Assembly (NCBI GenBank): GCA_965206125.1
Contig: CBDBIN010000039.1
Coordinates: 10,202-74,201, forward strand
Length of the DNA: 64,000 nucleotides
Source of the DNA: Terriglobia bacterium
GTDB taxonomy: Bacteria; Acidobacteriota; Terriglobia; 20CM-2-55-15
Reading direction: 5' to 3'
The notes below the pieces were generated by a model, which was not told where the DNA came from, did no database searches, and saw only the letters and a list, made by a program, of their open reading frames with translations. Below, piece after piece: positions 9,116-62,261 of the stretch; position 1 is the stretch's first letter; every line of letters starts with the position of its first letter. The translations under genes were made by a program, and so were the position numbers.

Positions 9116-9197
9116 TCATTATTGATTGATATAAATGATTATACTCCTCTGAGCGGAGTTGTCACATGCACTACAGGGGACGGCGAGCGGTTTGAGT

Positions 9198-45453: not shown

Positions 45454-46327
45454 TCAGCACCGCAGAGGAATCGACTGCAGGTTGCGAAGGATGGTCGCAA
45501 AGACTTCGGCGTAGGGATAGGCCTCCGACATCGAGATCCAGACGTTGCGGACCGTCAGGCGGATGCGAGCGCCGATCTTGAGAAGCTTCAGGCGGATGGT
45601 CTGGCATTGAGCGCGGGCCAGCGGGGTATCCTTGAGCCCCAGACGACGCAGTGTATGTATGAGCATGTAAGCGGCTGAGGATAGATACAGCCGGAGCTGA
45701 TTGGCACCCATCGTCGCCGCGCTGGTGAGGTCGGCAAACAGATCCAGTTGTTGTTCCTTGATGCGGTTCTCCATGTCGCCCCGTGCACAGTAGAAATCTT
45801 CCTAGAGAGCTTGGGCGGCGAGGCGTTTTGTCGGTAATGAGGTCACCACGAATCGAGGATTGGCACCCTTGTCCAGGAACTCGGCCTTGGCTCCGACGCG
45901 TCGGGTGCAGCTCCAGCTCTTCAGGGTCCGGTACTGAAAATCCTTAAACACCCGCGCCGGTTTTCCGGTGGTGTTAAACTCCGCTTCGGCCTGAGTCATT
46001 TCTTCCGCAATCTCTCGCTTGAGACGGTCGTTCTTGGCCAACCCGATCACGTAATCGAGCTGATGGGCCTCACACCAACGGAGTAATTCATCCCGGCAAA
46101 AGCCGGAATCGGCCCGGATGATGATCGACACTCCCGGCCAGCTGTGACGGATCTGGCCGATGATACGTTTCAACTCATCCACCGCTCCATCGGCACCATC
46201 GATATTGGATCGGCGCAGACGGGCGCACAACAGGTGTTCGGCACAGAAGATGTACAAAGGCAGATAGCAATAGCGGCGGTAGTGGCCGTGAAAGAACCGG
46301 CCTCGGAACGTGTCAACAAGTTTGAGA
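45454..46327 (-). pseudogene. IS1380-family transposase, N-terminally truncated at intron junction, with in-frame TAG
   Basis: Track ORFs 45802..46350 and 45454..45774 are in the same frame, separated by TAG (45802-45804). HGHYRRYCYLPLYIF, IIIRADSGFC, YCARGDMENRIKEQQ are IS1380-type motifs. Confidence 0.75.
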
Positions 46328-48315
46328 GTGCGCCGTGAAAGGTGAGTCAACGCAGCCGGTGAAAGTCCGGTCCAAGGAGGTGTCGGTAGACCTTGGTAGC
46401 TACCCAGGCGGTGGCAAGGGCGACCAACCCATCGAAGCCCTGGGGACAGAGACCCGCCTTGGGCGGGTTTGCAAGCGTGCGGGCCGCAACGCGAGTGAAG
46501 CCTGAGCAGGCCTCGAAAGGTTGAATGCGAGCGCCGAGTCTCCTCTCATTAGACGAAGGCCCATGAGGGTGGCCAGATGAACCGACAAGAGACGGTCGCC
46601 CTGCTCGCCGGGGTAGTGGGCGCAGCACGTACGCACGCGGGGACTCGCAACACGGGAAACCTGTTGTGCTGCCGGGGAGACCTGGCAACGGCTCCAACTG
46701 GGAGGCGGGCGCGACAGGCGTCGGAGGGGCTCATACTACCGATGAACCCGGGTAATGCCGGGGGAGGGAAGGAGCCCTAGTTCGGGGTGCGTTTGAACGA
46801 GTTGAGATGAGGAGATTGGCGTGAGCCTGGCAACTCCAGAAAAGATTCGGAAGCTCCAACGAGCGCTCTACGTGAAGGCCAAGCATGAGCCGACACGGCG
46901 ATTCCACTTCTTATATGACAAGGTGTGGCGTGAAGACATTCTGACCCACGCCTACGCGCGTTGCCGATCCAACGGTGGGGCGCCGGGCGTGGATGGGGAA
47001 ACCTTTACGCACATTGAGGGATATGGGGTGGACCGCTGGCTCAACACGGTACGGGAGGAGGTGCGAACAGGACGCTACAGACCGCAACCGGTCAAACGGG
47101 TGATGATTCCAAAGTCTGGTGGCGTGGGCCAACGGCCGCTGGGGATTCCGACTATCCGTGACAGGGTAGTGCAAACCGCGGCGAAGTTGGTGCTCGAACC
47201 GATTTTCGAAGCAGACTTCGATGGGGCGGTCTACGGGTATCGTCCCAAACGGAGCGCGCTGGATGCGGTTCGAACCGTTCATCGGGCAATTGATGAGGGG
47301 CACACCAAAATAGTCGATGCCGATCTATCGAAATACTTCGATACGATTCCCCACCCCGAGCTGATCAAGTGCGTTGCACGACGTGTTAGCGACGGGAAGA
47401 TGCTGCATCTGATCAAGATGTGGTTGAAGACGCCGGTCGAGGAGACCGGCGAACGGGGACATCGGCGGATGAGTGGCGGCAAGAAGGCGACGCGGGGAAC
47501 ACCGCAGGGTGGAGTGGCATCGCCATTGTTGGCGAACATCTACATGCATCGTTTCATCAAGGCGTTTCGCAAGCATGGTTTGGATCGTCGGTACGACGCG
47601 GTGCTGGTGACCTACGCGGACGATTTCGTGGTCCTGTGTCGGCATGGCGCCGGTGAGGTCCTCGAAACGACTCGGCGATGGATGGCCAGCATCGGTCTCA
47701 CGCTGAACGAGACCAAGACGCGTGTATGCGACGCCCGATGCGAGCCCTTCGACTTCCTCGGCTATACCTTCGGGCCGATGTACTCTCCGCGAACCGGCGG
47801 ACGCTACAACGGTGCGCGGCCTTCCAAGAAGGCTGTGGCCTCGGTCAAGGAGCATATCCGGCGACGCCTGCGGTCCGGTAATCACGCGCCATGGGAAGAC
47901 GTGGCGCGGGGCCTGAACCGCATGGTGCGGGGATGGTCGGCCTACTTCAGCTATGGGTCGGTGACGCAGGCGCGACACGGGGTGAAACTGTATCTCTATC
48001 ACGCCGTCCGTCGCTTCCTTCGGCGTCGGCACAAAGTGGCCGGGTCTGGTTACCGGCGGTTCCCCACCGATGAGGTATTTGGGAAGCTGGGCGTGCTGTC
48101 TCCCGAATCCTGTCCGCATGAGGTCTGGTCGGCAATGCGCACGCCTTGACGTGAAACCCGTCCGAGAGCCGGGTGCGGGAAATCCGCACGCCCGGTTCGA
48201 TGAGCGGGGAGGAGAAACGGAGCGATGGACTTCTCGGCGAGACCAGCAACGAAAGACGCTGGCCGCTATCGGCGCCGCCGGTCCTGTACGCCACCGCGCT
48301 TCTCCTCGACTCTAC
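46328..48315 (+). mobile_element. Full-length group II intron (about 1.99 kb)
   Basis: 5-prime GTGCG at 46328. Intact RT ORF. Domain V GAGCCGGGTGCGGGAAATCCGCACGCCCGGTTC at 48166-48198. Proposed 3-prime end ...TCGACTCTAC at 48315. Confidence 0.8.
46821..48149 (+). CDS. Group II intron reverse transcriptase/maturase
   Basis: 442 aa. RPLGIPTIRDRVVQ, DADLSKYFDTIPH, GTPQGGVASPLLANIYM, TYADDFVVL, domain X LNRMVRGWSAYFSYG. Confidence 0.9.
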   Translation: MSLATPEKIRKLQRALYVKAKHEPTRRFHFLYDKVWREDILTHAYARCRSNGGAPGVDGETFTHIEGYGVDRWLNTVREEVRTGRYRPQPVKRVMIPKSGGVGQRPLGIPTIRDRVVQTAAKLVLEPIFEADFDGAVYGYRPKRSALDAVRTVHRAIDEGHTKIVDADLSKYFDTIPHPELIKCVARRVSDGKMLHLIKMWLKTPVEETGERGHRRMSGGKKATRGTPQGGVASPLLANIYMHRFIKAFRKHGLDRRYDAVLVTYADDFVVLCRHGAGEVLETTRRWMASIGLTLNETKTRVCDARCEPFDFLGYTFGPMYSPRTGGRYNGARPSKKAVASVKEHIRRRLRSGNHAPWEDVARGLNRMVRGWSAYFSYGSVTQARHGVKLYLYHAVRRFLRRRHKVAGSGYRRFPTDEVFGKLGVLSPESCPHEVWSAMRTP

Positions 48316-48966: not shown

Positions 48967-49194
48967 CTCAATCCCATCGGTAATTTTGCGGCTCATCCCA
49001 TCAAGAGTGAGCACACTGGCGAGGTGATGGAAGTCGAGCCCGGCGAGTCTGAATGGCTTTTAGAGACCCTAGAGAGTTTATTCGACTTTTATTTCGTGCA
49101 GCCCGCGAAGTTGAATAAAAAAAGAGACGCGATAAACAAGAAATTGAAGGAAGCAGGCAAGCCGCAGTTGAAGGGGGCTGCTGGTGAGAAATAG
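48967..49194 (+). pseudogene. DUF4145-like C-terminal fragment
   Basis: LNPIGNFAAHPIKSEHTGEVMEVEPGESEWLLETLESLFDFYFVQPAKLNKKRDAINKKL matches the DUF4145 GNxxAHP... C-terminal pattern. The N-terminal ~100 aa are absent. Confidence 0.5.
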
Positions 49195-49292
49195 GAGTCG
49201 ACCTGCCGTCATGAGCCTGCCTAAGATGGTGTGGGACACCTGCGAGAAAAGGACCAGACGCACTCATGGCTGGAGATTAGGAGAGATGAGAG

Positions 49293-50243
49293 ATGAGGAC
49301 TTTAGCGATAGCGATACTGTTAACGATCCTCGGCTTTACGGCGGAGGCACGAAACATCTACGAACAACAGGCCCCGGAAGCGCCGTCGCTCGAAGAGGAC
49401 CGCCTCGTGCTGTTGAAGACGCATGAGAACGCCTTCGGATCAGCCCGTTACAGCAGTTGGGACAATCGGAAGATCCACGACGCGCAAGTCACTGTTCGCT
49501 CAGGTGTTCGCATAAATGGTGCGATTGATTGGCGACTGGACTACGTGGTTACCGGGAAGGAGTTCCGTGTCGAAGACTTCGATGTTGATGAGGATGACGA
49601 TCAGGTGAAGATCAAGCTCCAAGCTACCGACGTCGATGTCGGAACGGAACTGAACCTGACGATTCCGGGTATTGACAATTTGCCTGTTATCGCAAGTGCT
49701 CTGTTCTCTTCCACGAGGGGAGGCATCGAGGATTACAGGTCGGGGATCGAACCTGAGATGATCGACCGTCATATCGATTCCGCGTTCGACACGACGGGCG
49801 TGACCGATGAACAAAAACAGCGCCTTCTGGCCGCGATAACGGAGTTGCCTATCGACCGCATTCAGGTTGAGGCCGAGGACGAAGGACTGTTTGTCCGGCT
49901 TCCATTCCGACACGGGACGCAGTACAACACGCGCGTCGTGAACAAGTCTCAGAGGCTTGCCAGCACAATACAGGAGGTCCTTCGCGCTGCGAGATCTCTT
50001 ATCTCTGAAGATCAGATGCGCAACGAGTTCTTGGCGGGGTATACGCTCTATTGGACTTCGTTCTTTAGGGACTTCGTTGACGAGGAGTCGGCTTCGTGGG
50101 AGTCCATCGAACTTTCCATGGATCGCTTCGACTTCGAGGATTATGCGGACGGAGACCTGAGCGCCTTCGATCTAGTGAGTCGATCGAAGCTGCGTGTTGC
50201 TAAAGAGCTCTACACGCTCACGTCGTGGGAGCCGATCCAATAG
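49293..50243 (+). CDS. Secreted hypothetical protein
   Basis: MRTLAIAILLTILGFTAEA signal peptide. Acidic 316-aa protein, no recognised domain. Confidence 0.55.
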   Translation: MRTLAIAILLTILGFTAEARNIYEQQAPEAPSLEEDRLVLLKTHENAFGSARYSSWDNRKIHDAQVTVRSGVRINGAIDWRLDYVVTGKEFRVEDFDVDEDDDQVKIKLQATDVDVGTELNLTIPGIDNLPVIASALFSSTRGGIEDYRSGIEPEMIDRHIDSAFDTTGVTDEQKQRLLAAITELPIDRIQVEAEDEGLFVRLPFRHGTQYNTRVVNKSQRLASTIQEVLRAARSLISEDQMRNEFLAGYTLYWTSFFRDFVDEESASWESIELSMDRFDFEDYADGDLSAFDLVSRSKLRVAKELYTLTSWEPIQ

Positions 50244-50338
50244 AACAAAAGATTACGACATCCCTGCGCGCTGCGGCTGCGGTGGCCGCTACGGCGCCGT
50301 ATCCCATACATTCTAATATGGCAATCCAGCGCCTCCTT

Positions 50339-51826
50339 CTACAACCGATCCCCATATTCTTTAATCGCGATGGCCAACGCCGTGTCCAGCCACCGCAAGA
50401 ACGAATCCTCTATCTCCTGCTCGCTCGTCCGATGTGTGAAGACGAATGGCTCCATGGAGCACACTTGAAATTCCTGTGAAACCACGTCCCGGTCTTCGGA
50501 GTTCTCGTAAGATTCCAGCTTGGCAAACGCTGTGGCTTCCATGATTCCCGAAAGCTCCCGTCCAACGTGATGGAATGAGGTGACGAACACGAGCCTCTCG
50601 CGGTCGACCCATACGCTGGCTTTCAGGAAGTAGTGAGCCTCTACGAAGTTCGCAAACTTGCCTACCTCATTGGCCGTCTGGACGACTTCGAATTTGTACC
50701 AATGTGCGTTATCGTGATCCGGCCCACCGTTCGCAATCCTGATGGTTGGTTCGCCAACCGTTGCCAGTGGCTTTGCCAGTTCACTGAAGATCTTCTCGAC
50801 ATGTTCTCTGGCGTTTTGACGTAGCCTGATCGCGACGTCGTTAACCTTCCTAAGCTCGGTCAGCTTCGCCTGACGCCGTCGGCTGAACTTTTCGGTAAGG
50901 GTTTCGATGACGGCTGAAGTCAGGATGCGCTCGTGAGCTACTTCTGCTTCCGCATCGACACTCAGGGCCTGAACAATTGCGGTTCGTTCCAGGCGCGCAA
51001 AAAGCTGTGCAAGAGCGCGAAGGTCGCCGTCGTCGGCCTTTTCCAGAGCACCGAGGTATTCGATGCGGAGATCGCGATCGATAACTAGCGGCAGCAGGTC
51101 CGATCGAAGCAGAACATATGTGATGAGTGCCCTCGCAACGCGTCCATTCCCGTCCTGGTACGGGTGAATTTGAGTGAAGCGATGGTGAAGCCATGATGCG
51201 ACAATGACCGGATCGATTGACTCGTAATTCGAAAAGGACTCCAAAAGGCGCTCCATCTCGGAATCCACGTGTACAGTAGGACAGTACTCATGAACGGATC
51301 CGTCGGGGCGCTTCGGATTGTTTGCCAGTTCTTTGTAGACTCCTTTTCTCAGTGGAATGTCGATCCGGTTACCGAACTGATCGACTGCCACAGTCGTATC
51401 TTGGTGCCTGGTCAGAATCGTGTGAAATTCGTGTATTACGCCTTTGCTCAACGACCGGTTGCCGGCAACACAATCCATCACCAGTTGAATGGCTGCCTCG
51501 TGGTCCCTCAGAATGTCAATCAATCGTGACGGTTCGATGTCCGTGCTCGAACTGGAAATCAGATCTTCGATGAAACCCTTGGCAACGAGCGCTTCGGTTG
51601 TTCCGCGGTCGAGATCGTAGAGGCGTTCGAGGATGCCGGTTTCGACGCTGAGCTGCCGGACGAGCTTTGTCGTAAAGCTCTTCAGCGCCGCAGTGCCTGA
51701 GGCCTTCAGGAGCGCTTTCGATGCGTGCCAGGACTCATACAGGGGGGTCGTGGCCGCCAAGTCGATCGCCCTGTCCTGATCGGTCAGTGGTTCAATCGGG
51801 TGCCACTTATAATTTGTCATCCTCAA
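50339..51826 (-). CDS. Fic-family protein with ~200-aa unassigned C-terminal region
   Basis: HPYQDGNGRVAR matches the Fic core HxFx(D/E)GNGRxxR. N-terminal SVETGILERLY resembles the Fic_N inhibitory-helix region. Confidence 0.85.
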   Translation of the reverse strand: MRMTNYKWHPIEPLTDQDRAIDLAATTPLYESWHASKALLKASGTAALKSFTTKLVRQLSVETGILERLYDLDRGTTEALVAKGFIEDLISSSSTDIEPSRLIDILRDHEAAIQLVMDCVAGNRSLSKGVIHEFHTILTRHQDTTVAVDQFGNRIDIPLRKGVYKELANNPKRPDGSVHEYCPTVHVDSEMERLLESFSNYESIDPVIVASWLHHRFTQIHPYQDGNGRVARALITYVLLRSDLLPLVIDRDLRIEYLGALEKADDGDLRALAQLFARLERTAIVQALSVDAEAEVAHERILTSAVIETLTEKFSRRRQAKLTELRKVNDVAIRLRQNAREHVEKIFSELAKPLATVGEPTIRIANGGPDHDNAHWYKFEVVQTANEVGKFANFVEAHYFLKASVWVDRERLVFVTSFHHVGRELSGIMEATAFAKLESYENSEDRDVVSQEFQVCSMEPFVFTHRTSEQEIEDSFLRWLDTALAIAIKEYGDRL

Positions 51827-51990
51827 TCCACTCCAAAGTTGGTTGCTTATCGGGTCTCACTCCACGACCGCACGGGGCCTGGACCCGAAGCAACCGGGGA
51901 GTCGATGTGGCACATTCGAAGACGACATACAGCCAGTAGCGGTTCCGCGCGTTGCAGGTGCGCTCCCACTCGTTTTCGCTGATCTTGATG

Positions 51991-52863
51991 TCACGGCCGC
52001 GTCATTCGCCATCCGAACAGTTCACGCCAATGCTCCACGGCGGCACGTTCCTTCCCGTCGTTCTCAAGGAGCAGCGCTTCCTCGGCCACCGTCAACCATT
52101 TCCGTACGATGTCTGCTATCTCTCCGCGTCGCGCACGCGAGACTCCACCGTTAACATCAGGGCCAAGTCCGGCAGGATCGGGCCAGTCGTCTGTGATGCG
52201 GTCGGCAACAGAAGCTAAGAAGAACCGGATCTCGTCACGATAACGTCCAAAGGGCTGGAGTACGAGTTCCAGAGCCATGACTTCTAGAAGAAACGAAGGA
52301 TCTATAGGCTCTCCGGCTTCGCGATTGATCCCCTTCACCATCTTCACGAACGGAACGAATTTTTCGTCACATTCCTTGTTCTTGGCCGTTACCAAGGCAG
52401 CGTGCTCTTGTGGATCCGTATCCATCCATCTCGCCCCATTCGGCATGCGATAGCCGTGCCCTTCTCGCGGAAACACCGGGGCAACTTCGTACGATGCAAC
52501 GTCCTCATCGCCGTATTTGATTGTCACCACATTGTCGTCGGTATCGAGATCGCTCCAGCGAGTCGCGAGTACGTCGCGTAGGGCGACGATTGCAGCCGTC
52601 CCTGAGCCCTTCGCCAACGATCCCTGCGGTCCAGCCGGGTCAAGCACTGCGAAGATATCGACATCCTTCAGCTTCTTCGTCTTGGTCTGCCGATTATAGC
52701 TTCCGGTCAGGAAATGATCTGTCAGTTGCCAAGAGGATTCAATATGCTTGCGAACCAACTTGTGTCGACTCTGCGCGAGTTCGCTCTCGGTCTTCGTGAT
52801 TTCAAGATTGGATTTCAAGTTATCAAACGCATCGTCAATGTAAGCCATAGCGTTTCTATTCAC
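51991..52863 (-). CDS. CD-NTase/SMODS-type nucleotidyltransferase
   Basis: FLTGSYNRQTKTKKLKDVDIFAVL gives the GS...DxD polymerase-beta-fold signature. 290 aa. Last gene of a coupled four-gene operon with TRIP13-like and HORMA-like proteins. Confidence 0.7.
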   Translation of the reverse strand: MNRNAMAYIDDAFDNLKSNLEITKTESELAQSRHKLVRKHIESSWQLTDHFLTGSYNRQTKTKKLKDVDIFAVLDPAGPQGSLAKGSGTAAIVALRDVLATRWSDLDTDDNVVTIKYGDEDVASYEVAPVFPREGHGYRMPNGARWMDTDPQEHAALVTAKNKECDEKFVPFVKMVKGINREAGEPIDPSFLLEVMALELVLQPFGRYRDEIRFFLASVADRITDDWPDPAGLGPDVNGGVSRARRGEIADIVRKWLTVAEEALLLENDGKERAAVEHWRELFGWRMTRP

Positions 52864-53369
52864 CTTCTAAGGTAACGGAGACCAGCGCTCGCGTGCGGTC
52901 CGGCTGCAAGTGTGCCGAAACTGTGGGACTGCATCCCGGAAGTGGATGCTCGAATATCCGGACTCCATCCTGGTTGGGCTGAATGAGTTCCCTTGAAGCT
53001 GCAGAACAGGCGGTAGGTGGTTCTCCTAGGAACGCCCTGTAGTTTCGCCAAGTATCGCGCCAGCGCCGCTCGATCCGCGGTGAACTTACGATCACCCTCC
53101 CCAGTGGCCGTGTACGACACCGGGAACTCCATAATCGGACTTACTGTTCCGTTTGGCTGCTGACACTCCAATACTACACACCTGAGTGAACCCTCTTTGA
53201 TCCAGTTCAAAATCGCACGTTGGTCCGTATCCCAATCAGCAAAGAGATATGTTGCGTCGAGGCCCAGCGTCCCGAGAATGTCAGCGATGGACCCAAGTAT
53301 GACGTCGGCCAGATGAGTGGCAGTGTGAGTGCGCGTATACGTCGTCGTCGTCGTTGCCGTGTAGGTCAT
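52860..53369 (-). CDS. Bacterial HORMA-like protein (tentative)
   Basis: 169 aa. Thr-rich N-terminus TYTATTTTTYTRTHTATHLADVILGSIADIL recalls the N-terminal strand/helix of CBASS HORMA proteins. Context with TRIP13-like ATPase. Confidence 0.45.
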   Translation of the reverse strand: MTYTATTTTTYTRTHTATHLADVILGSIADILGTLGLDATYLFADWDTDQRAILNWIKEGSLRCVVLECQQPNGTVSPIMEFPVSYTATGEGDRKFTADRAALARYLAKLQGVPRRTTYRLFCSFKGTHSAQPGWSPDIRASTSGMQSHSFGTLAAGPHASAGLRYLRR

Positions 53370-53860
53370 TGCTTCATCTCCATCTTGCGGAGCGCCTCCA
53401 CATCAATAAGCGAGTCCCTAGAGCTGCCCTTCGCTTTAGCGGAAGGTGCTGACTTTGGCGGCGGGTATGCCGATAGATGCGCCGATTTCTTCACTACTGC
53501 CGCGATGCTCGCATTGAGCGGCCCTGCCTGGGGCAAATAGAGAGTCCATTCTGCTGTGGCACTTGCACCACCTGGCACCGGGTTGGGGTTCTCCTCAACT
53601 TCGAGCGCAGCATCGGCCGTCATCACGGAAACCGTAAGATGCAGGTCGACGTCCACCAGCACCAAGCCCTTGGATTCGAAGTGCCCTCCTGCGATAAGTG
53701 CGGGTGCAAGGCCATAGAGTGGCGCGAGTTCCTGGGCCACACTCCCGACAGGAATTGCCGGGCTGCTTTCAAGCGTGTCGGCAAGAAGTGTGGAAACAAC
53801 CTGCCATGCTTCAGCCGCACTCCGAACTGGTGCCGCCGCGATCGTCCTTTGTCGTTTCAT
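53366..53860 (-). CDS. Unassigned 164-aa protein in the TRIP13/CD-NTase operon (possible second HORMA-like subunit)
   Basis: Start and stop both overlap neighbours by 4 nt. No motif recognised. Lys/Ala/Ser-rich C-terminal tail PPPKSAPSAKAKGSS. Confidence 0.5.
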   Translation of the reverse strand: MKRQRTIAAAPVRSAAEAWQVVSTLLADTLESSPAIPVGSVAQELAPLYGLAPALIAGGHFESKGLVLVDVDLHLTVSVMTADAALEVEENPNPVPGGASATAEWTLYLPQAGPLNASIAAVVKKSAHLSAYPPPKSAPSAKAKGSSRDSLIDVEALRKMEMKQ

Positions 53861-54747
53861 GTCAGTTTCCTCGTCTCTTCTGACCGGGGGCGAGTGGCCT
53901 GCTTCAGACGCGCCGCAGCTGTGAGCAAGTCCTCCACGGTCATGCAGCCTGGGTCCACCACTGTTTCGTGGCGACCGAGCATCGCCTCAGTGATCGTCTT
54001 GCGAATCCGCCTCCCGTCGGTGCCCGCCAGCTGTTCGGCAACTTTCTTAAGTCGAGGCTCGCGGGCGAGCTGAGCAAAGGGTGGGAACGCGGACGACATC
54101 TCTTCAAGAGTGGCTCTCAGAATCGCGACGGCGGCGCGTTCATCCGGTGCAGGGACGTAGATCTCAACATCCACTCTCGAGAGGAACGCTTCGTCGAGAG
54201 CGCCGGTGAAATTACTTGTCGCTACAAAGATGACGTTGGGAAAGTTCGATGTATTCGAATCGAGGGCAGCCAAGACGGCATCGGTGGCGCGGTGGACATC
54301 GGCTGGGTTTGCGGCGAGTGAGGCCTCGCTCCGCGCAACGGCCATGGATTCGACCTCGTCGAGGAGAACTACCGTCGGAATTCCGTCCTCTGCTAGGCTC
54401 GGCACATATTCGGTCAGCAGTTCCGTGACCTTTCGCTGGCTCTGACCATGTTCTGCGCTCATGAGCCCGTGCGGATTCACTTCAATGAACCGAACCTTCT
54501 GCCCCCGGGTGAAAAGTGCCAACTGGTGTGCGAGGCCACGGCCGAGTGTGGTCTTGCCGGTCCCAGGCGGCCCGTGGAGCAGAGCAAGCCCGTGCAGGGC
54601 GGTGGTCTCGAATGGCAGTTCGGCGCGTAGGCGCAGGGCAAGAGCTGCAGATCGAAGAAGGCGTTCCTTGACCGATGGCAGGCTAATGATGGAATCCCAC
54701 AGCTTGGCGTACTGTGGATCTGGCATCATGCGCTCGACCCTCACCAT
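53857..54747 (-). CDS. AAA+ ATPase, Pch2/TRIP13-like
   Basis: LLHGPPGTGKTTL Walker A, VVLLDEVESM Walker B, ATSNFTGALDEAFLSRVD. Start placed at ATG 54747 (or 54729), because track start 54816 lies in the AT-rich operator region. Confidence 0.75.
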   Translation of the reverse strand: MVRVERMMPDPQYAKLWDSIISLPSVKERLLRSAALALRLRAELPFETTALHGLALLHGPPGTGKTTLGRGLAHQLALFTRGQKVRFIEVNPHGLMSAEHGQSQRKVTELLTEYVPSLAEDGIPTVVLLDEVESMAVARSEASLAANPADVHRATDAVLAALDSNTSNFPNVIFVATSNFTGALDEAFLSRVDVEIYVPAPDERAAVAILRATLEEMSSAFPPFAQLAREPRLKKVAEQLAGTDGRRIRKTITEAMLGRHETVVDPGCMTVEDLLTAAARLKQATRPRSEETRKLT

Positions 54748-54774
54748 CTCAGCCGCGTATATCGCGTGTGTGAG

Positions 54775-54816
54775 TTGCATTAATGCAACTATAAGTTGCA
54801 TTATTAAATATTGCAA
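54775..54816. promoter_or_regulatory. Palindromic operator-like sites in divergent promoter region
   Basis: Perfect 14-bp palindrome TTGCATTAATGCAA (54775-54788) and TTGCA-N11-TGCAA (54796-54816) lie between the TRIP13 operon and the XRE gene, in AT-rich sequence. Confidence 0.55.
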
Positions 54817-54891
54817 GGAGTGATGGCGAATCGATACTGTAGGTGCATTCTTCGGGAAGGCACTCCAGAAGCGGGCCTCTCCCCGGATTAA

Positions 54892-55335
54892 ATGACGGTC
54901 AACTACATCATGGGCAATCTAACGAGTACCCACCCATCGGACAGGCCGGGATCAACAGGCCAAGGTCCTGCGGGCCGCGACAAATCGCCACAGGTGGGCA
55001 AAGTGCTACGACGGGCACGGACGCACAGACAAATGTCACTGCGGGAGGTCGAGCGACGGATCGGAAGATCCAACGCCTATTTGTCGCAGGTCGAGCGGGG
55101 CCTCATTAGGCAACCGGATCCGGTTGTTCTCTTGGAACTGGCTGAGCTTTACGGGTTGAACTTCATGACACTGACGACTTGGGCCGGATGGGTTTCAGAA
55201 GGAGGTTCCGAGCCAGACCCTGACCTTGGCAGCTCGACCAGCGTTCTAGTGCGCCGGGTACTGGAACTCGACGACAGGCAGCGCACACAGGTTCTCAGCT
55301 ATGTCGAGAGCCTTCTCCGCGAGAGCCGAACCTAA
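54892..55335 (+). CDS. XRE-family HTH transcriptional regulator
   Basis: VGKVLRRARTHRQMSLREVERRIGRSNAYLSQVERGLIRQPDPVVLLELAELYG is a classic Cro/C1 HTH. The start may be the internal ATG at 54910. Confidence 0.8.
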   Translation: MTVNYIMGNLTSTHPSDRPGSTGQGPAGRDKSPQVGKVLRRARTHRQMSLREVERRIGRSNAYLSQVERGLIRQPDPVVLLELAELYGLNFMTLTTWAGWVSEGGSEPDPDLGSSTSVLVRRVLELDDRQRTQVLSYVESLLRESRT

Positions 55336-55379
55336 GGTACCGAGACGTCCTGCATCCAGGCCATAGACGCGACCCAGGA

Positions 55380-56339
55380 GTGCGTTCAGACTTTGAGTAC
55401 GCGGTTGCTGGCAGCCAGTCTTCGAAACCATATCGTTCATCCATGGCGGATATCTCCACCACTCAGAACTTACTACCGAACATCCAGCGACTGGCTGCCC
55501 AGCGGTACCTATACTCGTGTGCCAAATGCCTTTCGACCATTCAGGCGCTGCTAGCTGGAGCGACGCCAGTCGCAAGTGCCGTGATAGTTGTGTTCTGGAC
55601 GGAAGCACAGCCATGGGCGGCTCTTGCAGGCGTCCTCGTGCTGTTTCTCGGTACGCTTTGGCTCGATCCTTGGGAAGACCGCCTCCGTGAGGCTGCTGCC
55701 GGCATGCAAGAGGATTTTGACTGCAACGTGCTGGATCTTCGGTGGAATGAAGTACTGGCAGGGCGGCGGCCGGCTGCTGAGGAGATCCACGAGGCTGCCA
55801 AGAAGAACAGGCCAGTGCCCCAAGCCCCACTCGAAAACTGGTATCCGACTATCATCGACTCTCTGCCTCTGCACTAGGCCCGGCTTATCTGTCAGCGGAC
55901 TAACTGTTGGTGGGATTCGAAACTGCGGCGGCGATATAGAAGCAAGGTACTGATCGCGTTGAGCCTCATCAGTACCATCGTCTTCGTTCTGGGCTTGTTG
56001 ACGGAAATAAACCTGCAGAAGTTCGTCCTTGCGGTCGCTGTACCACTTTCACCGACTCTCGTTTGGGGGATGCGTGAGGCACAGCGCCAAGAGAAGGCAG
56101 CGGCCACTCTTGATCGCCTCAAAGATTTTGGAGAAGACCTTTGGAAGGGAGTCGTCCAGGGTGAGGTGATGGAACCCGAGGCCACAAGCCGCTCACGCGA
56201 ACTGCAAGATGCGATCTTTCTACGCCGCCGTGCGAACCCCTTCGTCTTCGACTGGCTCTACCGGCTGGTGCGTCGAGACAACGAGGAGCAAATGAATGTC
56301 GGCGCGGAAGTTATGGTGGCTCAGGTGAATAAAGGGTGA
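55380..56339 (+). pseudogene. Four-TM membrane protein (S-4TM-like effector candidate) interrupted by one in-frame TAG
   Basis: Track ORFs 55380..55877 and 55959..56339 are in the same frame. The only stop between them is TAG 55875-55877. Two hydrophobic helices lie before the stop and two after. ICQRTNCWWDSKLRRRY is encoded just after it. Confidence 0.5.
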
Positions 56340-56352
56340 GTTATCAGAACAG

Positions 56353-56811
56353 TGTCGGAAGTGGACCCCATCGGTTGGACAGCGCGGCAGCCATTTTCGT
56401 GTGGATTCCACGGTTCATCATGCTGCCGAAGGGACCGTCGTGATCCCGTCGTAGACCTCGCCTGGGGTGAGATCACCGAGAGCGGAATGGGGCCGGCGGT
56501 CATTGTAGTACTCCATCCAATCCCTTATATGAAGATCCGCATCCTTGAAGTTCTGGAAGGCGTTCAGGTAGACGCACTCGTATTTCAAGGAGCGCCAGAG
56601 CCGCTTGATGAACACGTTGTCCATCCACTGGCCTTTGCCATCCATCGAGATCCGGACGCCGTGATGCTTCAGGAGGCTGGTCCAGGCGGCGCTGATGAAC
56701 TGACTGCCTTGGTCCGTGTTGAAGATCTCCGGACAGCCGTAGCGTTCGATGGCTTCCTCGAGAGCCTCGACGCAGAATGCCGTGTCTTGCGTGTTCGACA
56801 GCCTCCAGGCC
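56353..56811 (-). pseudogene. IS3-family transposase C-terminal fragment with terminal IR
   Basis: LAWRLSNTQDTAFCVEALEEAIERYGCPEIFNTDQGSQFIS...ISMDGKGQWMDNVFIKRLWRSLKYE...YNDRRPHSALG. Putative IS end TGTCGGAAGTGGACCCC at 56353. Confidence 0.8.
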
Positions 56812-57326
56812 AGCACGACGCGCTCACCGACGGTGGATGCGAGAAGCTCTTCCGCGAGAAGCTCTCCGGCACCCGCACGACCCTCCCGGCCAGAGAGAAG
56901 CTCCTCGCGTTCGCGCGCAAGGGCGATGTCGTCGTGGTGTGGAAACTCGATCGCCTTGGGCGCTCCCTCCGCGATCTGATTGATGTGGTGAACTCGCTCC
57001 AGGACCGCGGGGTCGGATTACGGTCTCTCCAGGAAGCCATCGACACGACAACACCCGCCGGCAAGCTCACGTTTCACATCTTTGCCGCACTTGCCGAGTT
57101 CGAGCGCGATATGATCCGTGAGCGCACCCGAGCCGGCCTCGCCGCCGCCCACAAGCGGGGCGTGGCCATCGGACGGCCGCGAGCACTCACGCCTGAGCAG
57201 ATCCTCATAGCCAAGGCGATGACGGCCGACCCATCCATCTCAATACGTCAGGTGGCGGAGCAGTTTGGTATCCACCGCTCGACGCTCTATCGGCACCTCA
57301 ACGCGCGTCAGAAACGCTCCGCTTAG
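56812..57326 (+). pseudogene. Small serine recombinase (resolvase), 5-prime truncated second copy
   Basis: Starts at ...HDALTDGGCEKLF (lacks the catalytic-Ser N-terminus) and runs to an intact C-terminal HTH (IRQVAEQFGIHRSTLYRHL). The first 150 codons of track ORF 56352..57326 are antisense to the IS3 fragment. Confidence 0.8.
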
Positions 57327-57335
57327 CGTGCAAAA

Positions 57336-57964
57336 TTACACCAATCTGCCTGATACCCTGAAGACTCTCGCAAAATATCGGAAACCCAGTTCATGGGCCT
57401 CAAGGAACGCCTGTTGCGTCGCTCGCGGATAGGCCCGATGGAACGCTCCACCACTGCCCATGCTCCGCATGCAAAACACCTGGACCTTCTGATGCTCGCC
57501 ATCCAACTCCGCGACAGATTCGTACCAGTCAATCTGCGCCTCCTGACCCCAGGCGTAGCTCTGCGGCACGAACGTCTCTTGTCGGATGAAACCCATCGCG
57601 CGCTTGCGCTGTCCGACATACCGTCGCACGGTCGATTCTCCAACCGGATGTTCAGGAAACTCGCCCCGAATCCGTTCCTAGATCCGGTAACTCGTGTGCC
57701 GCTGTTTCCGCGGCGCCTTCCGGTCCGCCTCCAACACCTCGTTGATAAATCCCATCACCGGCTCCAGCCGCGGCTTCTTCCGCTCCGGGCTCTTCCTCGC
57801 CGGGGGCACCGCGTCACCCAGTGCCTCACCATCCGCCGATGCACTCCCAGTTTCCGGGACACACCCTGGATCGTTCCAACTCCGAACTCGTGCTCCCGTC
57901 GGATCTCTTCAAATAATTTCACCTTTGATCTCCTCGACACCCGGTCCCTCCGTTCCAACTTCAT
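57336..57964 (-). pseudogene. IS21-family IstA transposase, N-terminal portion, frameshifted
   Basis: [30 protein letters not shown] (HTH) and [59 protein letters not shown] lie in different frames. Truncated at the resolvase end. Confidence 0.7.
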
Positions 57965-58370
57965 GTTTGGAACAGATTCTCCGGGTCAGTTGCCAGGGGT
58001 GGACCAAATCAAATGATCAAATGTGGGCCAATTGAGAGTAGCGAAATCAAGTGGTTGAGTCACGTCACCGAGACACCACAATTATGTGGAGCAAAATCTG
58101 AATCCCGAGACGCTATACCAACGATCGCTCAAAACCGAGATCTCAACTTCACATAATTCGGAGCTTCATATGACATGCCCATATACTTGTCTCACTTCAT
58201 ACTTCGCTTCTTGTGGATTCAACGCCTCAACGTTGAACGGTTGCCGTGATTCTGTCCCGACAACCGCCACAAGGGCGACCTTTCTTGTAGCGTTTTGAAG
58301 TGATCACTGAGGGCTCTGGAAAAGGAGAACCGATGAATGCCGATCAAACACTCTCTTGAAGGAGGAGAAA

Positions 58371-58889
58371 ATGGCCGAGTTCAAGCCCACTGTCGTAGAG
58401 AGACTGATCATCGGGATGCTGTGCGACATCTACAAGCACCTAGAACTGAAAGGCGGTTACGACGCTTCCCTGCTTGAAGAGGCTGTCGTCGGACCGCACC
58501 ATTGGGCACTAGCTTGGAAGTACTCGTTTCAAGATCCTGTCGACGAAGAGGTCGCCGATGAAGTTAGCCTCATCCTCAATATGTGGGAAATGCTCGAAGT
58601 GGGCTACGAACGGCTGTCAGAGGAAGATCAGGCTGATCTGGAGGCACCAAAGTTTCCCGGTTTTGATCTCAATGAGGAGACGAATCACTATAGTGTGGCC
58701 GACGTGATGATCAACCGCTTGGACCGCTTTCAGCGTTTTAAAGAGCGAGACCTCAATTCACATTACCCCATGCTTCACGAGCACAGAGACATGCTGCCTC
58801 GGTATCAGGCGATCAAGAAGGACTTCCTGAAGACCAGGGAAGGCTGGCCGCCAAATAAACAGCAAATCGAGCAGATCCTGAAAGGGTAA
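58371..58889 (+). CDS. YfbU-family protein
   Basis: GGAGGAG RBS then ATG 58371. ERLIIGMLCDIYKHL..., VSLILNMWEML, FPGFDLNEETNHYSVADVMI and NSHYPMLHEHRDMLPRY follow the YfbU (UPF0304) pattern. Confidence 0.65.
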   Translation: MAEFKPTVVERLIIGMLCDIYKHLELKGGYDASLLEEAVVGPHHWALAWKYSFQDPVDEEVADEVSLILNMWEMLEVGYERLSEEDQADLEAPKFPGFDLNEETNHYSVADVMINRLDRFQRFKERDLNSHYPMLHEHRDMLPRYQAIKKDFLKTREGWPPNKQQIEQILKG

Positions 58890-59019: not shown

Positions 59020-60366
59020 CTACGCAGCTGCGGTTCTGCCCCCGCTCATGCCTTGCTGAATCGCCTCAATGATGGCTTGGGTGACGGGGCCACGGACGCC
59101 ATGCGTCACCTCGGCGAGCGCCTCTGGAATCGAAAAGCCTAGGGCAAGAATCTCAGCGCCAGCGGATGTCTGCGCGTTCCGGACCCGGAGCCGAACCGAC
59201 TTGCTCGACCGCGTCGATGACGGATATATGAGGAGGGCCGCCGGGACCGCTTGGCCGCCGGATCCACCGAACGCGTAGGCGTAGAGGAAACCCTGGTACA
59301 CGTCCCTGCTCTCGAGCTTCCGTTCGTCGTAGAGCTTGTACTTTGCATCGACGGCGACACGAGCGGACACGCTGGGATCCTTCGCCTCAATGAGAAGATC
59401 CGGAACCACTCGAGCGTACGGCTGGTTGGTCGATGCGTTCACAATGATGGAGCCATCGCCTCGCTGGTAGTGCACGTGAAATCCAGTACCGACCAGGGAC
59501 TGATCGACGAGGCGGAAGACGAACATCTCGAAGAGCCGGTTCATATCGATCAGGAAGGCAAAGCAGCGCGTCTTTCCGGTGGAGAGCAGGTCTCGTGTGC
59601 CGAGACCGTCGAGAAGCAACCATGCCAGCACGTGGGCGTTGCGATAGTGGTCGTTGAGCCGGTTGTAAGTGACCCCGCGGTACCGAAGGGCGCGGAGATC
59701 AAAATCCTCGGTTTGGCAGACCTCTTGAAACACGGCCAGCAACCTTCGCACGCGCCGCCGTACAGATTCGTGGGTGATATGTGTCGAGCACCAGCCCAAC
59801 GCCGCCGCGAGGAGCTGGTTTTCGACGATGTCCTGCTCGTGCTCATCGAACCGGCAGACGAGTCGGTCGATCTGTCCAAACCGCCTCAGTACTTGCTGAT
59901 CGCCAAGGAGGCGGCCCCGTAGAACAGGGAGTTCGTCTTCACGCTCGACGTAGTCGGCGAGGATGCCACCGCGCAAGATGGCCTCAGTGGCTTCTGCGAG
60001 CAAAAGTGCCAACAAATCCACGAGGCCAGCACCTTCTGCGTTCAATGTCCGTGCGCTTGGGGCTCTGCGGAGTGCCTCGATCCCGGTGGTGAACTCGATC
60101 ATCTCGACCAGTCCACGGTTGGCGCCCGCCAGTTTAGGAACGACGCGCACCTCGAAGCGCTCGAAGCGCACGACTCCGACCCACGAACGTGCCGTGATTC
60201 GCACCCCGCTACGCAACTCATCCACGAGGAGGCGACCCTCCTCTCCGGGCTTGAGGTTCTGCCTAATAAGTTGCTGATCAGCTGGGGTCAGGGTCTCACC
60301 GTCAATGAGTCGGCTTTGCCACTCCCCCAACTCGAACGTCGGCAGGAGAACGTCAGGTCGGTTCAT
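59020..60366 (-). CDS. mcrC: McrC-like subunit of a McrBC type IV restriction system
   Basis: 448 aa. ITARSWVGVVRFERFEVRVVPKL N-terminal motif. C-terminal PD-(D/E)xK-like VPDLLIE...VAVDAKYK. The start overlaps the mcrB stop by 4 nt. Confidence 0.8.
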   Translation of the reverse strand: MNRPDVLLPTFELGEWQSRLIDGETLTPADQQLIRQNLKPGEEGRLLVDELRSGVRITARSWVGVVRFERFEVRVVPKLAGANRGLVEMIEFTTGIEALRRAPSARTLNAEGAGLVDLLALLLAEATEAILRGGILADYVEREDELPVLRGRLLGDQQVLRRFGQIDRLVCRFDEHEQDIVENQLLAAALGWCSTHITHESVRRRVRRLLAVFQEVCQTEDFDLRALRYRGVTYNRLNDHYRNAHVLAWLLLDGLGTRDLLSTGKTRCFAFLIDMNRLFEMFVFRLVDQSLVGTGFHVHYQRGDGSIIVNASTNQPYARVVPDLLIEAKDPSVSARVAVDAKYKLYDERKLESRDVYQGFLYAYAFGGSGGQAVPAALLIYPSSTRSSKSVRLRVRNAQTSAGAEILALGFSIPEALAEVTHGVRGPVTQAIIEAIQQGMSGGRTAAA

Positions 60367-60821
60367 GCAACGCCTCCATCGCTTCGGCCGAATTCATCCT
60401 CGAGCGCAGCCAACAAAGCGTCCGTGTCGGTAAGCGTTTCGTGGTCTAACGTTTGCGATTCCTTGTCGACCAGCTTGCCGCCGATGTACGACGCCAGAGT
60501 CACATAATCGTCGTAGCAGTACTCCTGCAGAAGCGGCAGGATTTCCTGCCGGAACCGTCGCGCGAACTCGTCCGGATCGCTAACCGGCTCATCTCCCTCG
60601 AGGAGGAACGAGTGCCCAATCTGTTTCTCTCGACCCTCGGTCCTCGCGATCCGACGGTTCAGTTCGTCCAGAAAGTCATCGAGCGCGAGCGTGCCTACCT
60701 TCGCGGCCCGGAGTACGTCGGTATTCGGCATCAGCTCAACGAACGCGAATCGGCGGCGCAATGCTGTGTCGAGAAGCTTCACGCTTCTATCAGCGGTGTT
60801 CATGGTGCCGAGCAAGTAAAC
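60363..60821 (-). pseudogene. mcrB: mcrB 3-prime portion (downstream of IS insertion)
   Basis: LLGTMNTADRSVKLLDTALRRRFAFVEL is the McrB C-terminal AAA+ signature. It continues the frame of 62262..64000 once the IS and one target-duplication copy are removed. Confidence 0.85.
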
Positions 60822-62261
60822 GAAAGTGTGCCAATCTTAGTTGGAAATTGAAACGGCTCCAAACCCTATGGTTTGATGGTATTGGAAGAAACAACATCAA
60901 GCCTGTAAGAGAAAGGAGCCGAGATGAGGAGTCTGTTACGTTCGGTGAAAAAACGCAAGAAGAGGCGAGTACTGGGTGAGGTCGAGGTCATGAGCCGGGA
61001 GGAGTACTCGGGACTGGAATTGGACTCGAAGGTGGAGATGATCCGGGCGTTGATCCCACTGGGGTTGATGCACGTAGAGGAGTTGCTCGACGAGGAAGTG
61101 AAGGCGTTGGCGGGTGAGCGATACGCGCGAAAGGAGGCGACGTTGAGGGGCCGGCGACACGGGAGCAATCCGGGGACCGTGGGGCTCGGGGGCCAGCGGG
61201 TGCCGGTTCGGGTGCCTCGAGTTCGCAGCGTGGCGGGCGGGGAGATTCCGCTTCGGAGCTACGAGGAACTCAGTCCGGATGGCGCGGTGAACGAACTGCT
61301 TCTCAGACGTGTGCTTTATGGGATCTCCTGCCGGAACTACGAGTCGGCCGCGGAAGCGATTCCAGGAGCCATCGGATTGTCGAGCTCGACGGTGTCTCGA
61401 GGATTCGTCCAGGCGAGTGCCGCGAAACTTCGGCAGATGCAGGAGCGGGATCTGTCGGCCGAGGACGTGGTGGCGATCTTCCTGGACGGGAAAATGTTTG
61501 CCGACGCCACGATGGTTGTGGCCCTGGGCATCACAATTACGGGCGACAAACGCTTCTTAGGCTTCGTGGAGACGAGTACGGAGAACGAGCAGGTACTGAC
61601 TCCGTTTCTCCGTTCATTGATGGAGCGAGGCCTGGACATCTCTGAAGGCGTGCTGGTGATCGTCGACGGCGGCAAAGGTCTGCGCGCGGCAGTCAAGCGG
61701 GCATTCGGTAATCGAGCCCTGGTCCAACGCTGCCAATGGCACAAACGCGAGAACGTGGTGAGCTACCTGTCGAAGACCGAGCAAGCCGCGTGGCGCAAGC
61801 GGCTTCAGCGTGCGTACCAGCGCCCGGAGTACAACGAAGCCCGGGCGGCCCTCGAACAGCTCCATGGAGAGCTCGAGGAGCGAAACCAATCGGCCGCTGC
61901 GAGCCTTGAGGAAGGCCTGGAGGAGACCCTCACGTTGCATCGACTCGGCGTGTACGGGGTCCTGGGCCGTTCGTTCAAGACGACGAATTGCTTGGAATCG
62001 GTCAATGCCCTCGTCGAGGAAAGGTGCGCGAAGGTCGATCATTGGAAGAACTCGAGCCAGCGGCAGCGCTGGTTGGCGACGGCGCTCATCGACATCGAAC
62101 GACGCTTGAGGAAGGTGATCGGCTACCGTCATCTTCCAAAGCTCCGCGAAGCCCTCAGGCGGGAGCTGAAGATTGAGGCGAAGACGTCGACGAGATCGAA
62201 GAAGAAGGTTGCGTGACCAATCGTGAGCCGTGGAGAGTTTCAACTAAGAATGGGCTTGACT
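60822..62261 (+). mobile_element. IS256-family insertion sequence (1440 bp) with 9-bp target-site duplication
   Basis: Direct repeat CAAGTAAAC at 60813-60821 and 62262-62270. Imperfect ~37-bp terminal IRs share ...TCTTAGTTG.AAA...ACGGCTC. Single transposase ORF. Confidence 0.9.
60924..62216 (+). CDS. IS256-family (Mutator-like) transposase
   Basis: LDSKVEMIRALIPLGLMHVEELLDEEVKALAGERYAR, VAIFLDGKMF, LVIVDGGKGL, QRCQWHKREN, NCLESVNALVEER. The start could be the internal ATG (MSREEY). Confidence 0.9.
   Translation: MRSLLRSVKKRKKRRVLGEVEVMSREEYSGLELDSKVEMIRALIPLGLMHVEELLDEEVKALAGERYARKEATLRGRRHGSNPGTVGLGGQRVPVRVPRVRSVAGGEIPLRSYEELSPDGAVNELLLRRVLYGISCRNYESAAEAIPGAIGLSSSTVSRGFVQASAAKLRQMQERDLSAEDVVAIFLDGKMFADATMVVALGITITGDKRFLGFVETSTENEQVLTPFLRSLMERGLDISEGVLVIVDGGKGLRAAVKRAFGNRALVQRCQWHKRENVVSYLSKTEQAAWRKRLQRAYQRPEYNEARAALEQLHGELEERNQSAAASLEEGLEETLTLHRLGVYGVLGRSFKTTNCLESVNALVEERCAKVDHWKNSSQRQRWLATALIDIERRLRKVIGYRHLPKLREALRRELKIEAKTSTRSKKKVA

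Follow-up and report, generated by a model that had tools for sequence, protein, structure and literature searches.

A widespread two-HORMA type III CBASS locus from a Terriglobia genome with a premature stop codon in its putative membrane-pore effector gene

Introduction

The locus studied here raises the question of whether CBASS-like genes that stand in an unexpected order, include a subunit without assignment, and seem to lack an effector make up a new kind of system or a known one. It lies within a stretch of 64,000 nucleotides of Terriglobia DNA, which is called the window throughout. The original prediction, made from the sequence alone, described four minus-strand genes, for a TRIP13-like ATPase, an unassigned 164-aa protein, a HORMA-like protein, and a CD-NTase, and read them as type III CBASS content in a noncanonical order. 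We find that the locus is a widespread, ordinary two-HORMA type III CBASS whose sole oddity is a premature stop in the gene of its membrane-pore effector. It is very likely that positions 51990 to 56339 form one mobile cassette that carries such a system in the usual order, with its S-4TM (SMODS-associated four-transmembrane) effector gene interrupted by a TAG codon and its defense probably lost.

Results

Components of the minus-strand unit

The locus consists of two transcription units, a minus-strand unit encoding TRIP13/Cap6, Cap8 (HORMA3), Cap7 (HORMA2), and a CdnD-type cyclase, and a divergent plus-strand unit encoding an XRE-type HTH protein and S-4TM. The four minus-strand open reading frames are real and occupy the positions first assigned to them, and the type III CBASS call was right, with PADLOC profiles recognizing the ATPase as TRIP13 (1e-113, full length), the 164-aa and 169-aa proteins as HORMA proteins (PDLC00885, 1.7e-32, full length, and PDLC00883, 3.3e-76, respectively), and the nucleotidyltransferase as a cyclase (3.7e-93).

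Cap6, a TRIP13/Pch2-like AAA+ ATPase (positions 53857 to 54747), has 296 aa when read from the ATG at 54747, a better start than the upstream TTG at 54816, which would reach into the operator/promoter region. Its translation contains GPPGTGKT (Walker A), VVLLDEVE (Walker B), and SNFTGALDEAFLSRVD, as originally quoted; it matches Pfam AAA (6.8e-24), has eukaryotic Pch2/TRIP13 as its best solved relatives in the PDB (7e-29), and is 88% identical to its orthologue in the nearest relative found (locus L001; dN/dS, 0.18).

The 164-aa protein (positions 53366 to 53860), whose start shares an ATGA with the TRIP13 stop, had been left unassigned and is Cap8/HORMA3, on the evidence of Pfam PF27322 (Cap8), precomputed on the window's own protein, the PADLOC HORMA match, and a fold match. 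Pfam profiles in a set without the Cap8 model return no family for it, and phmmer finds no match in the PDB. Structure prediction had been proposed as a check, and the AF2 model (pLDDT, 78; pTM, 0.73), with its N-terminal strand ordered and its C terminus of low confidence, matches the second HORMA fold of Pseudomonas aeruginosa: the top four Foldseek matches in the PDB are the ATCC27853 protein titled "HORMA1" (6p8s_C, 6p8p; probability, 1.00; TM, 0.49/0.60), and nothing else scores above 0.2. We take this "HORMA1" of the preprint and the PDB titles to be HORMA3/Cap8 in the later nomenclature.

The neighboring 169-aa protein (positions 52860 to 53369), which shares an ATGA with the Cap8 stop, was correctly described as a HORMA protein with a Thr-rich N-terminal tail and is Cap7 (HORMA2); besides its PADLOC match, it hits Pfam bacHORMA_2 (6.1e-23, 81.9 bits; cut-off, 27.3) and P. 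aeruginosa HORMA2 in the PDB (6p8r/6p8s/6p8o, 1.2e-18). By analogy with these homologues, Cap7 is presumably the closure-capable, peptide-sensing HORMA that activates the cyclase. Neither HORMA protein is matched by any NCBIfam profile.

The last gene of the unit (positions 51991 to 52848) encodes a CdnD-type CD-NTase, i.e., a CBASS oligonucleotide cyclase, of 285 aa from the ATG at 52848; a GTG at 52863 would add five residues. As predicted, it is a SMODS/CD-NTase protein, with both SMODS (2e-14, 54.6 bits; cut-off, 26.5) and the NCBIfam equivalog CBASS_cyclase_b (248 bits; cut-off, 200) above their thresholds. An MNT/KNT-type antitoxin nucleotidyltransferase, which would have undermined the prediction, was rejected, as NTP_transf_2 reaches only 20.2 bits, below its cut-off of 21. 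The best solved relative is P. aeruginosa CdnD (PDB 6p82/6p8u/6p8j, 1.5e-39), and in this nearest-structure comparison the next-best match also bears the name CdnD; CD-NTases of two-HORMA operons are assigned to clade D (D05), to which this cyclase may belong. G49-S50, D62, and D64 do not vary across 62 related loci, where the third acidic position, E121, holds E in 45 cases and D in 17; judged from these residues, the GS...DxD...[DE] active site is intact.

Translational coupling by 4-nt overlaps had been proposed for all three junctions. The overlaps at 53857-53860 and 53366-53369 are true (ATGA stop/start), and the one at 52860-52863 (GTGA) is probably not real, because among the homologues listed all cyclases start at the ATG equivalent to 52848 (MAYIDDAF...; mostly 285 aa) and because HORMA2 and cyclase are 11 nt apart in the closest relative.

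Gene order and spread of the cassette

Contrary to the original description, the order of the four genes is not noncanonical, as assessed in 62 loci from genomes and three annotated loci from plasmids. The order TRIP13, Cap8, HORMA2, cyclase is found in every complete locus among the 62 related genome loci (cyclases 48 to 91% identical), and the same core order recurs in the annotated plasmid systems of Rhodococcus, Methylobacterium, and Agrobacterium, whose cyclases are 63%, 36%, and 33% identical, respectively. The layout of cyclase, HORMA, TRIP13, and effector, taken as the textbook one by the original prediction, occurs in none of the two-HORMA loci examined. TRIP13, Cap8, Cap7, cyclase is thus the normal order of two-HORMA type III CBASS and differs from the cyclase-first layout; gene order is therefore unfit as a flag of novelty.

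The cassette forms a tight, horizontally mobile unit. DNA homology between the window and L001 spans exactly positions 51990 to 56324 (86.8% identity), and dN/dS against L001 is 0.13 to 0.29 for all five intact genes. The cyclase family has about 2,750 database relatives (E ≤ 1e-10), and the cassette is found in many phyla at 73 to 91% cyclase identity, in taxa that include Acidobacteriota, Spirochaetia, Pseudomonadales, Alphaproteobacteria, Actinomycetota, Gemmatimonadota, and a Rubritalea MAG. The components that define two-HORMA type III CBASS, namely, a cyclase, a closure-type HORMA, a second HORMA, and TRIP13, are all present here, and an intact linked effector is absent; the locus is a member of this class by descent, with a defective effector. 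As a separate observation, IS insertions and a split McrBC mark similar decay in the surroundings of the cassette.

Divergent promoter region and HTH regulator

Between the TRIP13 and HTH genes lies a putative divergent promoter/operator region (positions 54748 to 54891) with palindromes and TGCAA boxes. It contains an 18-bp perfect palindrome, AGTTGCATTAATGCAACT, at 54773-54790 and a further copy of AGTTGCATTA at 54794-54803, 21 bp from the first; minus-strand promoter-like hexamers (TTGCAA/TATAGT, 54816-54788) overlap these repeats, the count of promoter-like sites (3 versus 2.3 in shuffles) being not significant on its own. The TGCAA boxes align with those of four relatives (L001, L018, L020, and L024), and a strict perfect-palindrome search of the HTH/TRIP13 intergenic regions of relatives was positive only patchily. 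Given the window's own palindromes and the boxes aligned in four relatives, we regard the region as a candidate operator. A scan for terminators yielded nothing useful.

The first gene of the divergent unit (positions 54892 to 55335, plus strand) encodes an XRE-family HTH regulator of 147 aa, which matches Pfam HTH_31 (1.8e-10) and HTH_3 (2.4e-9) and, among solved structures, only generic XRE domains. L001 has an 83% identical orthologue at the corresponding place, and such a gene adjoins the cassette in about 28 of the 62 loci. A CapH/CapP regulator pair was considered and rejected: the match to PADLOC capH is weak (3.6e-4), and the HTH gene stands alone, with no ImmA/IrrE-type metallopeptidase among the neighboring open reading frames. 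The HTH protein, a putative repressor, would set expression, probably by binding the TGCAA-type palindromes of the promoter region that the two units share.

An effector gene interrupted by a single stop codon

The statement that the cyclase is not followed by a SAVED, NucC, or Cap4 gene was correct. The effector is nevertheless not missing, since the divergent four-TM gene, mentioned at first only as a nearby candidate, is a bona fide S-4TM CBASS effector gene (Pfam PF18159), though an interrupted one. The gene (positions 55443 to 56339, plus strand) has 297 sense codons and is split into two open reading frames (55380-55877 and 55959-56339), both in the same frame, by a single TAG at codon 145 (Gln145 to stop, positions 55875 to 55877), between TM2 and TM3 and just before the CQRxNxxWD motif. 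Its halves cover positions 2 to 143 and 174 to 289 of the 291 in the S_4TM profile (1.8e-39 and 1.1e-29) and match the PADLOC "4TM" effector (1.6e-38 and 1.9e-40); together with four hydrophobic segments (roughly residues 30 to 54, 55 to 77, 165 to 192, and 178 to 200), this coverage by both halves places the protein in the S-4TM family. No match was found among solved structures, and the read-through protein is matched by no NCBIfam model.

The gene is 80% identical to the intact 318-aa gene of L001. Glutamine occupies the codon-145 position in the six closest homologues (CAA in the five read at the codon level), and an internal stop or a split gene is seen in none of the roughly 42 S-4TM homologues. 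The TAG allele recurs without a single difference in contigs from five public runs (X1, X2, X3, X4, and X6) of three studies; these are assembled contigs, which drop rare variants, so the same strain may also hold CAG as a minority allele. Run X4 also holds a sister allele, about 87% identical, with C at 55875, i.e., CAG. The dN/dS of S-4TM against L001 is still low (0.24), which points to a recent stop and is no evidence that the gene can be spared; the C-terminal half has a slightly higher value than the other (0.29 versus 0.19), a gap too small to demonstrate relaxed selection. On this sequence evidence, S-4TM is probably a dead gene, either a pseudogene or the source of a severely truncated product. 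Although the sensor half looks intact, the system is probably unable to kill the cell or execute abortive infection, because its effector stops after the second of four transmembrane helices, ahead of the best conserved motif.

An alternative that we consider unlikely is that S-4TM still functions, either because low-level read-through of the TAG delivers a small, deliberate dose of a toxic pore or because the two halves act as a split effector. The lesion is single, and the downstream half is in frame and conserved. The allele occurs in samples of three studies, and its truncation is thus tolerated at the least, which would also fit some residual function. Against read-through, TAG is a normal stop for other genes in the window, e.g., the Fic gene, most of whose homologues also have 493 aa, and the window contains no tRNA genes and hence no suppressor tRNA; recoding of TAG was rejected on these same grounds. 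Against a split effector, a 144-aa piece plus one of about 126 aa from the TTG at 55959 would lack residues 146 to 172, including CQRTNCWWD, the family's best conserved motif, the second piece would begin inside TM3, and none of the relatives is split. Quite improbable, too, is the extended form of this idea, in which the interrupted effector lives on by very low read-through or in two pieces, the separate HTH-effector unit gates the pore dose independently of the sensor, and the recurrence of the allele in three studies reflects selection, not drift.

We likewise hold little brief for the view that the sensor operon persists because an effector elsewhere in the genome answers to its cyclic oligonucleotide, so that defense survives the loss of the linked S-4TM. 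TRIP13, Cap8, HORMA2, and CdnD are indeed intact, with conserved catalytic residues, yet a nonsense mutation of merely recent date would leave them just as intact, and the neighbors examined include no other cyclic-nucleotide-sensing effector.

The downstream Fic protein (positions 50339 to 51826), also put forward originally as a candidate effector, is on the same strand, 164 nt past the cyclase stop, in the slot where actinobacterial relatives carry S-4TM, and it matches the PADLOC candidate-defense models PDC-S04 and SoFic. However, it belongs to a separate mobile module with a 316-aa protein (positions 49069 to 51915), and this module is 99.3% identical to a CBASS-free contig with ParA, an identity that ends 75 nt short of the cyclase stop codon. 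Fic homologues that share 91%, 87%, and 71% identity never adjoin a CD-NTase, and in the 62 CBASS loci the only Fic similarity is a weak match in L013 and L015 (33% over 78 residues), which lies about 2 kb beyond the cyclase on the other strand. This reading is already largely refuted, and we give it hardly any credence. Finally, an intact effector with a TAG that arose through an error of sequencing or assembly is extremely improbable. The codon is one base away from sense, yet it recurs with zero mismatches in independent contigs of three studies (five runs, three samples), and the C variant is confined to an allele that is plainly another one, differing at 47 of 347 bases.

Discussion

With an interrupted S-4TM gene and loss of killing as the preferred reading, the locus can be placed within the mechanism described for HORMA2, HORMA3, TRIP13, and CdnD (bioRxiv 10.1101/694695). 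By homology to the P. aeruginosa and Escherichia coli systems, HORMA2, with Cap8 as its likely partner, would close around a foreign peptide during infection and then bind and activate CdnD, which would make a cyclic oligonucleotide; the P. aeruginosa homologue makes cyclic tri-AMP. TRIP13 would act as the negative regulator, pulling the Thr-rich HORMA2 N terminus to reopen HORMA2 and hold the system off. The signal would open or oligomerize S-4TM in the inner membrane, and the cell would be killed before phage release. Here, the single CAG-to-TAG change at codon 145 would leave a sensor without a working effector.

Every part of the locus is already recognized by profile libraries, and the catalogue of defense systems gains nothing new from it. 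It is of modest interest as a natural CBASS whose killing module appears to have been knocked out by one point mutation with the sensor left intact, a state in line with the view that effectors of abortive infection carry a cost and are the first to be lost.

Among known systems, the two-HORMA type III CBASS of P. aeruginosa ATCC27853 consists of CdnD, HORMA2, a second HORMA, TRIP13/Pch2, and NucC (bioRxiv 10.1101/694695). The window has the same four sensor and regulator components, its cyclase and HORMA2 match those of this strain, the cyclase as the best PDB match, and its Cap8 model matches only the second HORMA, at 18% identity in the structural alignment, where phmmer finds no similarity. 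Its TRIP13 is closest to eukaryotic TRIP13, as the same work reports for two-HORMA operons. In place of the NucC nuclease, the window has a stop-truncated S-4TM in a divergent unit behind an HTH regulator. In this arrangement it resembles CapH/CapP-regulated CBASS (bioRxiv 10.1101/2022.04.27.489752), where a divergent HTH regulator shares the promoter region with the CBASS core genes; it differs in that no CapP-type metallopeptidase is present and the effector follows the HTH gene instead. A distant Agrobacterium two-HORMA relative carries an HTH and ImmA/IrrE pair in the divergent regulator position.

That 4TM proteins can be working CBASS effectors is supported by the E. coli CdnD12-4TM operon, which pairs a clade-D cyclase with a 4TM effector and is listed among the operons that restrict phages of five viral families at least 10,000-fold (bioRxiv 10.1101/2023.05.21.541620). 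It is a type I system without HORMA or TRIP13, and the likeness to the window is one of components. The Rhodococcus opacus plasmid pLPS8 system, with an annotated "CBASS oligonucleotide cyclase" and "S-4TM family putative pore-forming effector," has the order AAA ATPase, two small proteins, cyclase, plus the S-4TM effector; unlike in the window, that effector is intact and lies directly downstream of the cyclase, overlapping it, without a divergent HTH-effector unit. The nearest relative found, the Terriglobia MAG OZ253554.1 (L001/L003), differs in its flanking genes and has an intact S-4TM (318 aa called) with CAA (Gln) at the window's TAG; it shares the identical six-gene layout and orientation, with proteins 80 to 91% identical.

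Results

The locus carries the four consecutive minus-strand genes originally predicted, as ORFs between 51991 and 54816: TRIP13 (Cap6; 53857-54816, or to 54747 with the other start), a 164-aa protein (53366-53860), a 169-aa protein (52860-53369) and the cyclase (51991-52863). Three 4-nt overlaps had been proposed; those between TRIP13 and the 164-aa gene and between the 164- and 169-aa genes are genuine ATGA overlaps. The third, a GTGA, overlaps only if GTG at 52863 is the cyclase start, and is doubtful because the cyclase homologues listed all start with MAYIDDAF (mostly 285 aa), equivalent to the window's ATG at 52848, and because the closest relative has an 11-nt HORMA2-cyclase spacing.

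Three protein identities proposed earlier were borne out. The ATPase matches the PADLOC TRIP13 model at 1e-113, and among solved structures it is nearest to eukaryotic Pch2/TRIP13 (7e-29), as for the ATPases of two-HORMA operons (bioRxiv 10.1101/694695). The 169-aa protein is a bacHORMA_2 member (81.9 bits; cut-off 27.3) and matches Pseudomonas aeruginosa HORMA2 structures at 1.2e-18, making it HORMA2 (Cap7). Against the NCBIfam CBASS_cyclase_b equivalog the cyclase scores above the cut-off, its nearest match is P. aeruginosa CdnD (1.5e-39), and G49-S50, D62, D64 and an acidic residue at 121 are kept across 62 loci; assignment to MNT/KNT nucleotidyltransferases was ruled out, NTP_transf_2 scoring under its cut-off. 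The 164-aa protein, previously left without assignment, gave nothing with a local Pfam copy or with phmmer against the PDB, and is Cap8 (HORMA3): a PADLOC HORMA model covers the whole protein (1.7e-32), and the precomputed Pfam tag PF27322 (Cap8) is attached to it and to over 100 relatives. The suggested fold comparison agrees, as its AlphaFold2 model (48 homologues as input; pLDDT 78, pTM 0.73) retrieved the P. aeruginosa second HORMA as the top four Foldseek matches in the PDB (6p8s_C, 6p8p; probability 1.00), with no other match above 0.2 probability. The model's ordered N-terminal strand and low-confidence C-terminus fit the "open-locked" state described for that second HORMA (bioRxiv 10.1101/694695).

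The 144-bp region between TRIP13 and a divergent XRE-type HTH gene (54892-55335, plus strand) contains an 18-bp perfect palindrome and, 21 bp off, a third half-site copy, both overlapping a promoter-like hexamer pair for the operon, with TGCAA boxes aligned in four relatives; from these elements we infer putative regulation. A CapH/CapP assignment for the HTH protein was not adopted, since the capH match is weak and the CapP peptidase is absent from the window cassette.

The HTH gene opens a divergent unit whose next gene forms two ORF pieces, one matching the first half and the other the second half of Pfam S_4TM (PF18159) and of PADLOC "4TM" effector models. The divergent 4-TM gene, originally listed among the nearest effector candidates, is this effector gene, present although interrupted. 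A lone TAG (55875-55877) divides the two pieces, which are in the same frame. Translation probably starts from the ATG at 55443, the point at which the profile begins to match, giving 297 sense codons with the stop as codon 145, between hydrophobic segments 2 and 3 and directly before a conserved CQRxNxxWD motif. In each of the six nearest homologues this codon encodes Gln, and none of the ∼42 S-4TM homologues in the surveyed loci has an internal stop. Assembled contigs from the public sequencing runs X1, X2, X3, X4 and X6 (three samples, three studies) span 55875 with zero differences from the window, and a second allele in X4 (47 differences in 347 bases) has C at 55875 and reads CAG there. 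TAG also terminates other window genes, Fic among them (its homologues are likewise 493 aa in most cases), and the window holds no tRNA gene. By these observations the stop is a real nonsense mutation of this lineage, from CAG to TAG. Relative to L001, the nearest relative (a Terriglobia MAG cassette, OZ253554.1), S-4TM has a dN/dS of 0.24 (other genes, 0.13-0.29) and carries no second lesion, so that its inactivation is recent relative to that split.

DNA homology to L001 spans exactly 51990-56324. On the cyclase side lie Fic (493 aa, ending in TAG) and, on the opposite strand, a 316-aa gene (49069-51915). This module is 99.3% identical to a 10.6-kb contig with ParA and without CBASS, the identity ending 75 nt before the cyclase, and three further unrelated contexts hold Fic homologues (91%, 87% and 71% identical). 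Fic, earlier a candidate effector, is a separate mobile gene, of a very large family of conserved length (3,787 relatives, mostly 493 aa); given its matches to the PADLOC candidate-defence models PDC-S04 and SoFic, it may itself serve in defence. Directly past the S-4TM stop, from ∼56347, contig word depth rises 20- to 50-fold, which indicates multi-copy IS-like DNA (56347-58016); transposase/resolvase fragments follow. In this stretch lie a resolvase ORF with the N-terminus missing (56352-57326), part of an rve integrase (56418-56816, minus) and short minus-strand ORFs, IS21-like by eye (57336-57629 and 57755-57964), without Pfam matches where tested. More widely, the region forms a defence island rich in mobile elements. 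Present there are a DDE transposase fragment (45802-46350) beside a group II intron (Rfam D1-D4, 46353-46494; RT/maturase ORF, 46821-48149; domain V/VI, 48164-48315), a YfbU-domain gene (58356-58889) and a McrBC-type restriction locus (59020-63809). In the latter, a Mutator-family transposase gene (60924-62216) separates an intact-looking McrC gene (59020-60366) from an EVE plus AAA_5 McrB-like gene (62244-63809), so that the system is probably disrupted. Two more group II intron RNA matches lie at 11077-11215 and 23436-23536.

Discussion

All proteins of the window were placed on 62 loci taken from species-representative genomes (cyclases 40-91% identical), and every complete locus has the order TRIP13, Cap8, HORMA2, cyclase. 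PGAP-annotated plasmid systems of Rhodococcus, Methylobacterium and Agrobacterium (cyclases 63%, 36% and 33% identical to the window's) read AAA ATPase, hypothetical protein, HORMA protein, CBASS cyclase, effector; those of Methylobacterium and Agrobacterium also have a divergent upstream XRE or HTH plus ImmA/IrrE pair. The gene order, once taken as non-canonical, is thus what two-HORMA type III CBASS normally shows and no exception. In relatives, S-4TM either follows the cyclase directly (mostly in Actinomycetota) or adjoins the HTH gene upstream, and the arrangement seen in the window, with S-4TM behind the HTH gene in a unit divergent from the operon, is also that of L001/L003, L020 and L021. 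Cyclases 73-91% identical occur in MAGs of Terriglobia, Spirochaetia, Pseudomonadales, Alphaproteobacteria, Vicinamibacterales, Gemmatimonadota, Actinomycetota and Rubritalea, which suggests that the cassette has recently spread horizontally between phyla.

A second, tandem partial cassette (TRIP13 fragment, Cap8, HORMA2, CdnD) directly follows the first in L020 (Bryobacterales MAG, 7067-8996) and L021 (Rubritalea MAG, 8430-10554). A second, distant CD-NTase (25% identical) adjoins the cassette in L006 (8820-9662, between the HTH and S-4TM genes) and in L013 and L015 (both 7949-8512). In L063 (Pseudomonadales MAG, 5112-5903), an in-frame stop interrupts the TRIP13 orthologue, and the surroundings yielded no S-4TM gene; possibly this system too has decayed, losing its effector along with its negative regulator.

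By homology to the characterized P. aeruginosa and Escherichia coli systems (bioRxiv 10.1101/694695), HORMA2, with Cap8 as its partner, would sense a foreign peptide, close, and bind and activate CdnD, and TRIP13 would reset it; the cyclic oligonucleotide would then switch on the S-4TM membrane effector, aborting infection. With its effector truncated in this genome, the CBASS described here is probably sensor-competent but unable to kill. The sole noteworthy point of the locus is this nonsense mutation; existing knowledge accounts for the three features that first drew attention, namely the gene order, the unassigned subunit and the apparent lack of an effector. A clade-D cyclase with a 4TM effector protects E. 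coli as a type I system (bioRxiv 10.1101/2023.05.21.541620). Two-HORMA type III CBASS is a well-populated known kind, of which the window locus is one further member.
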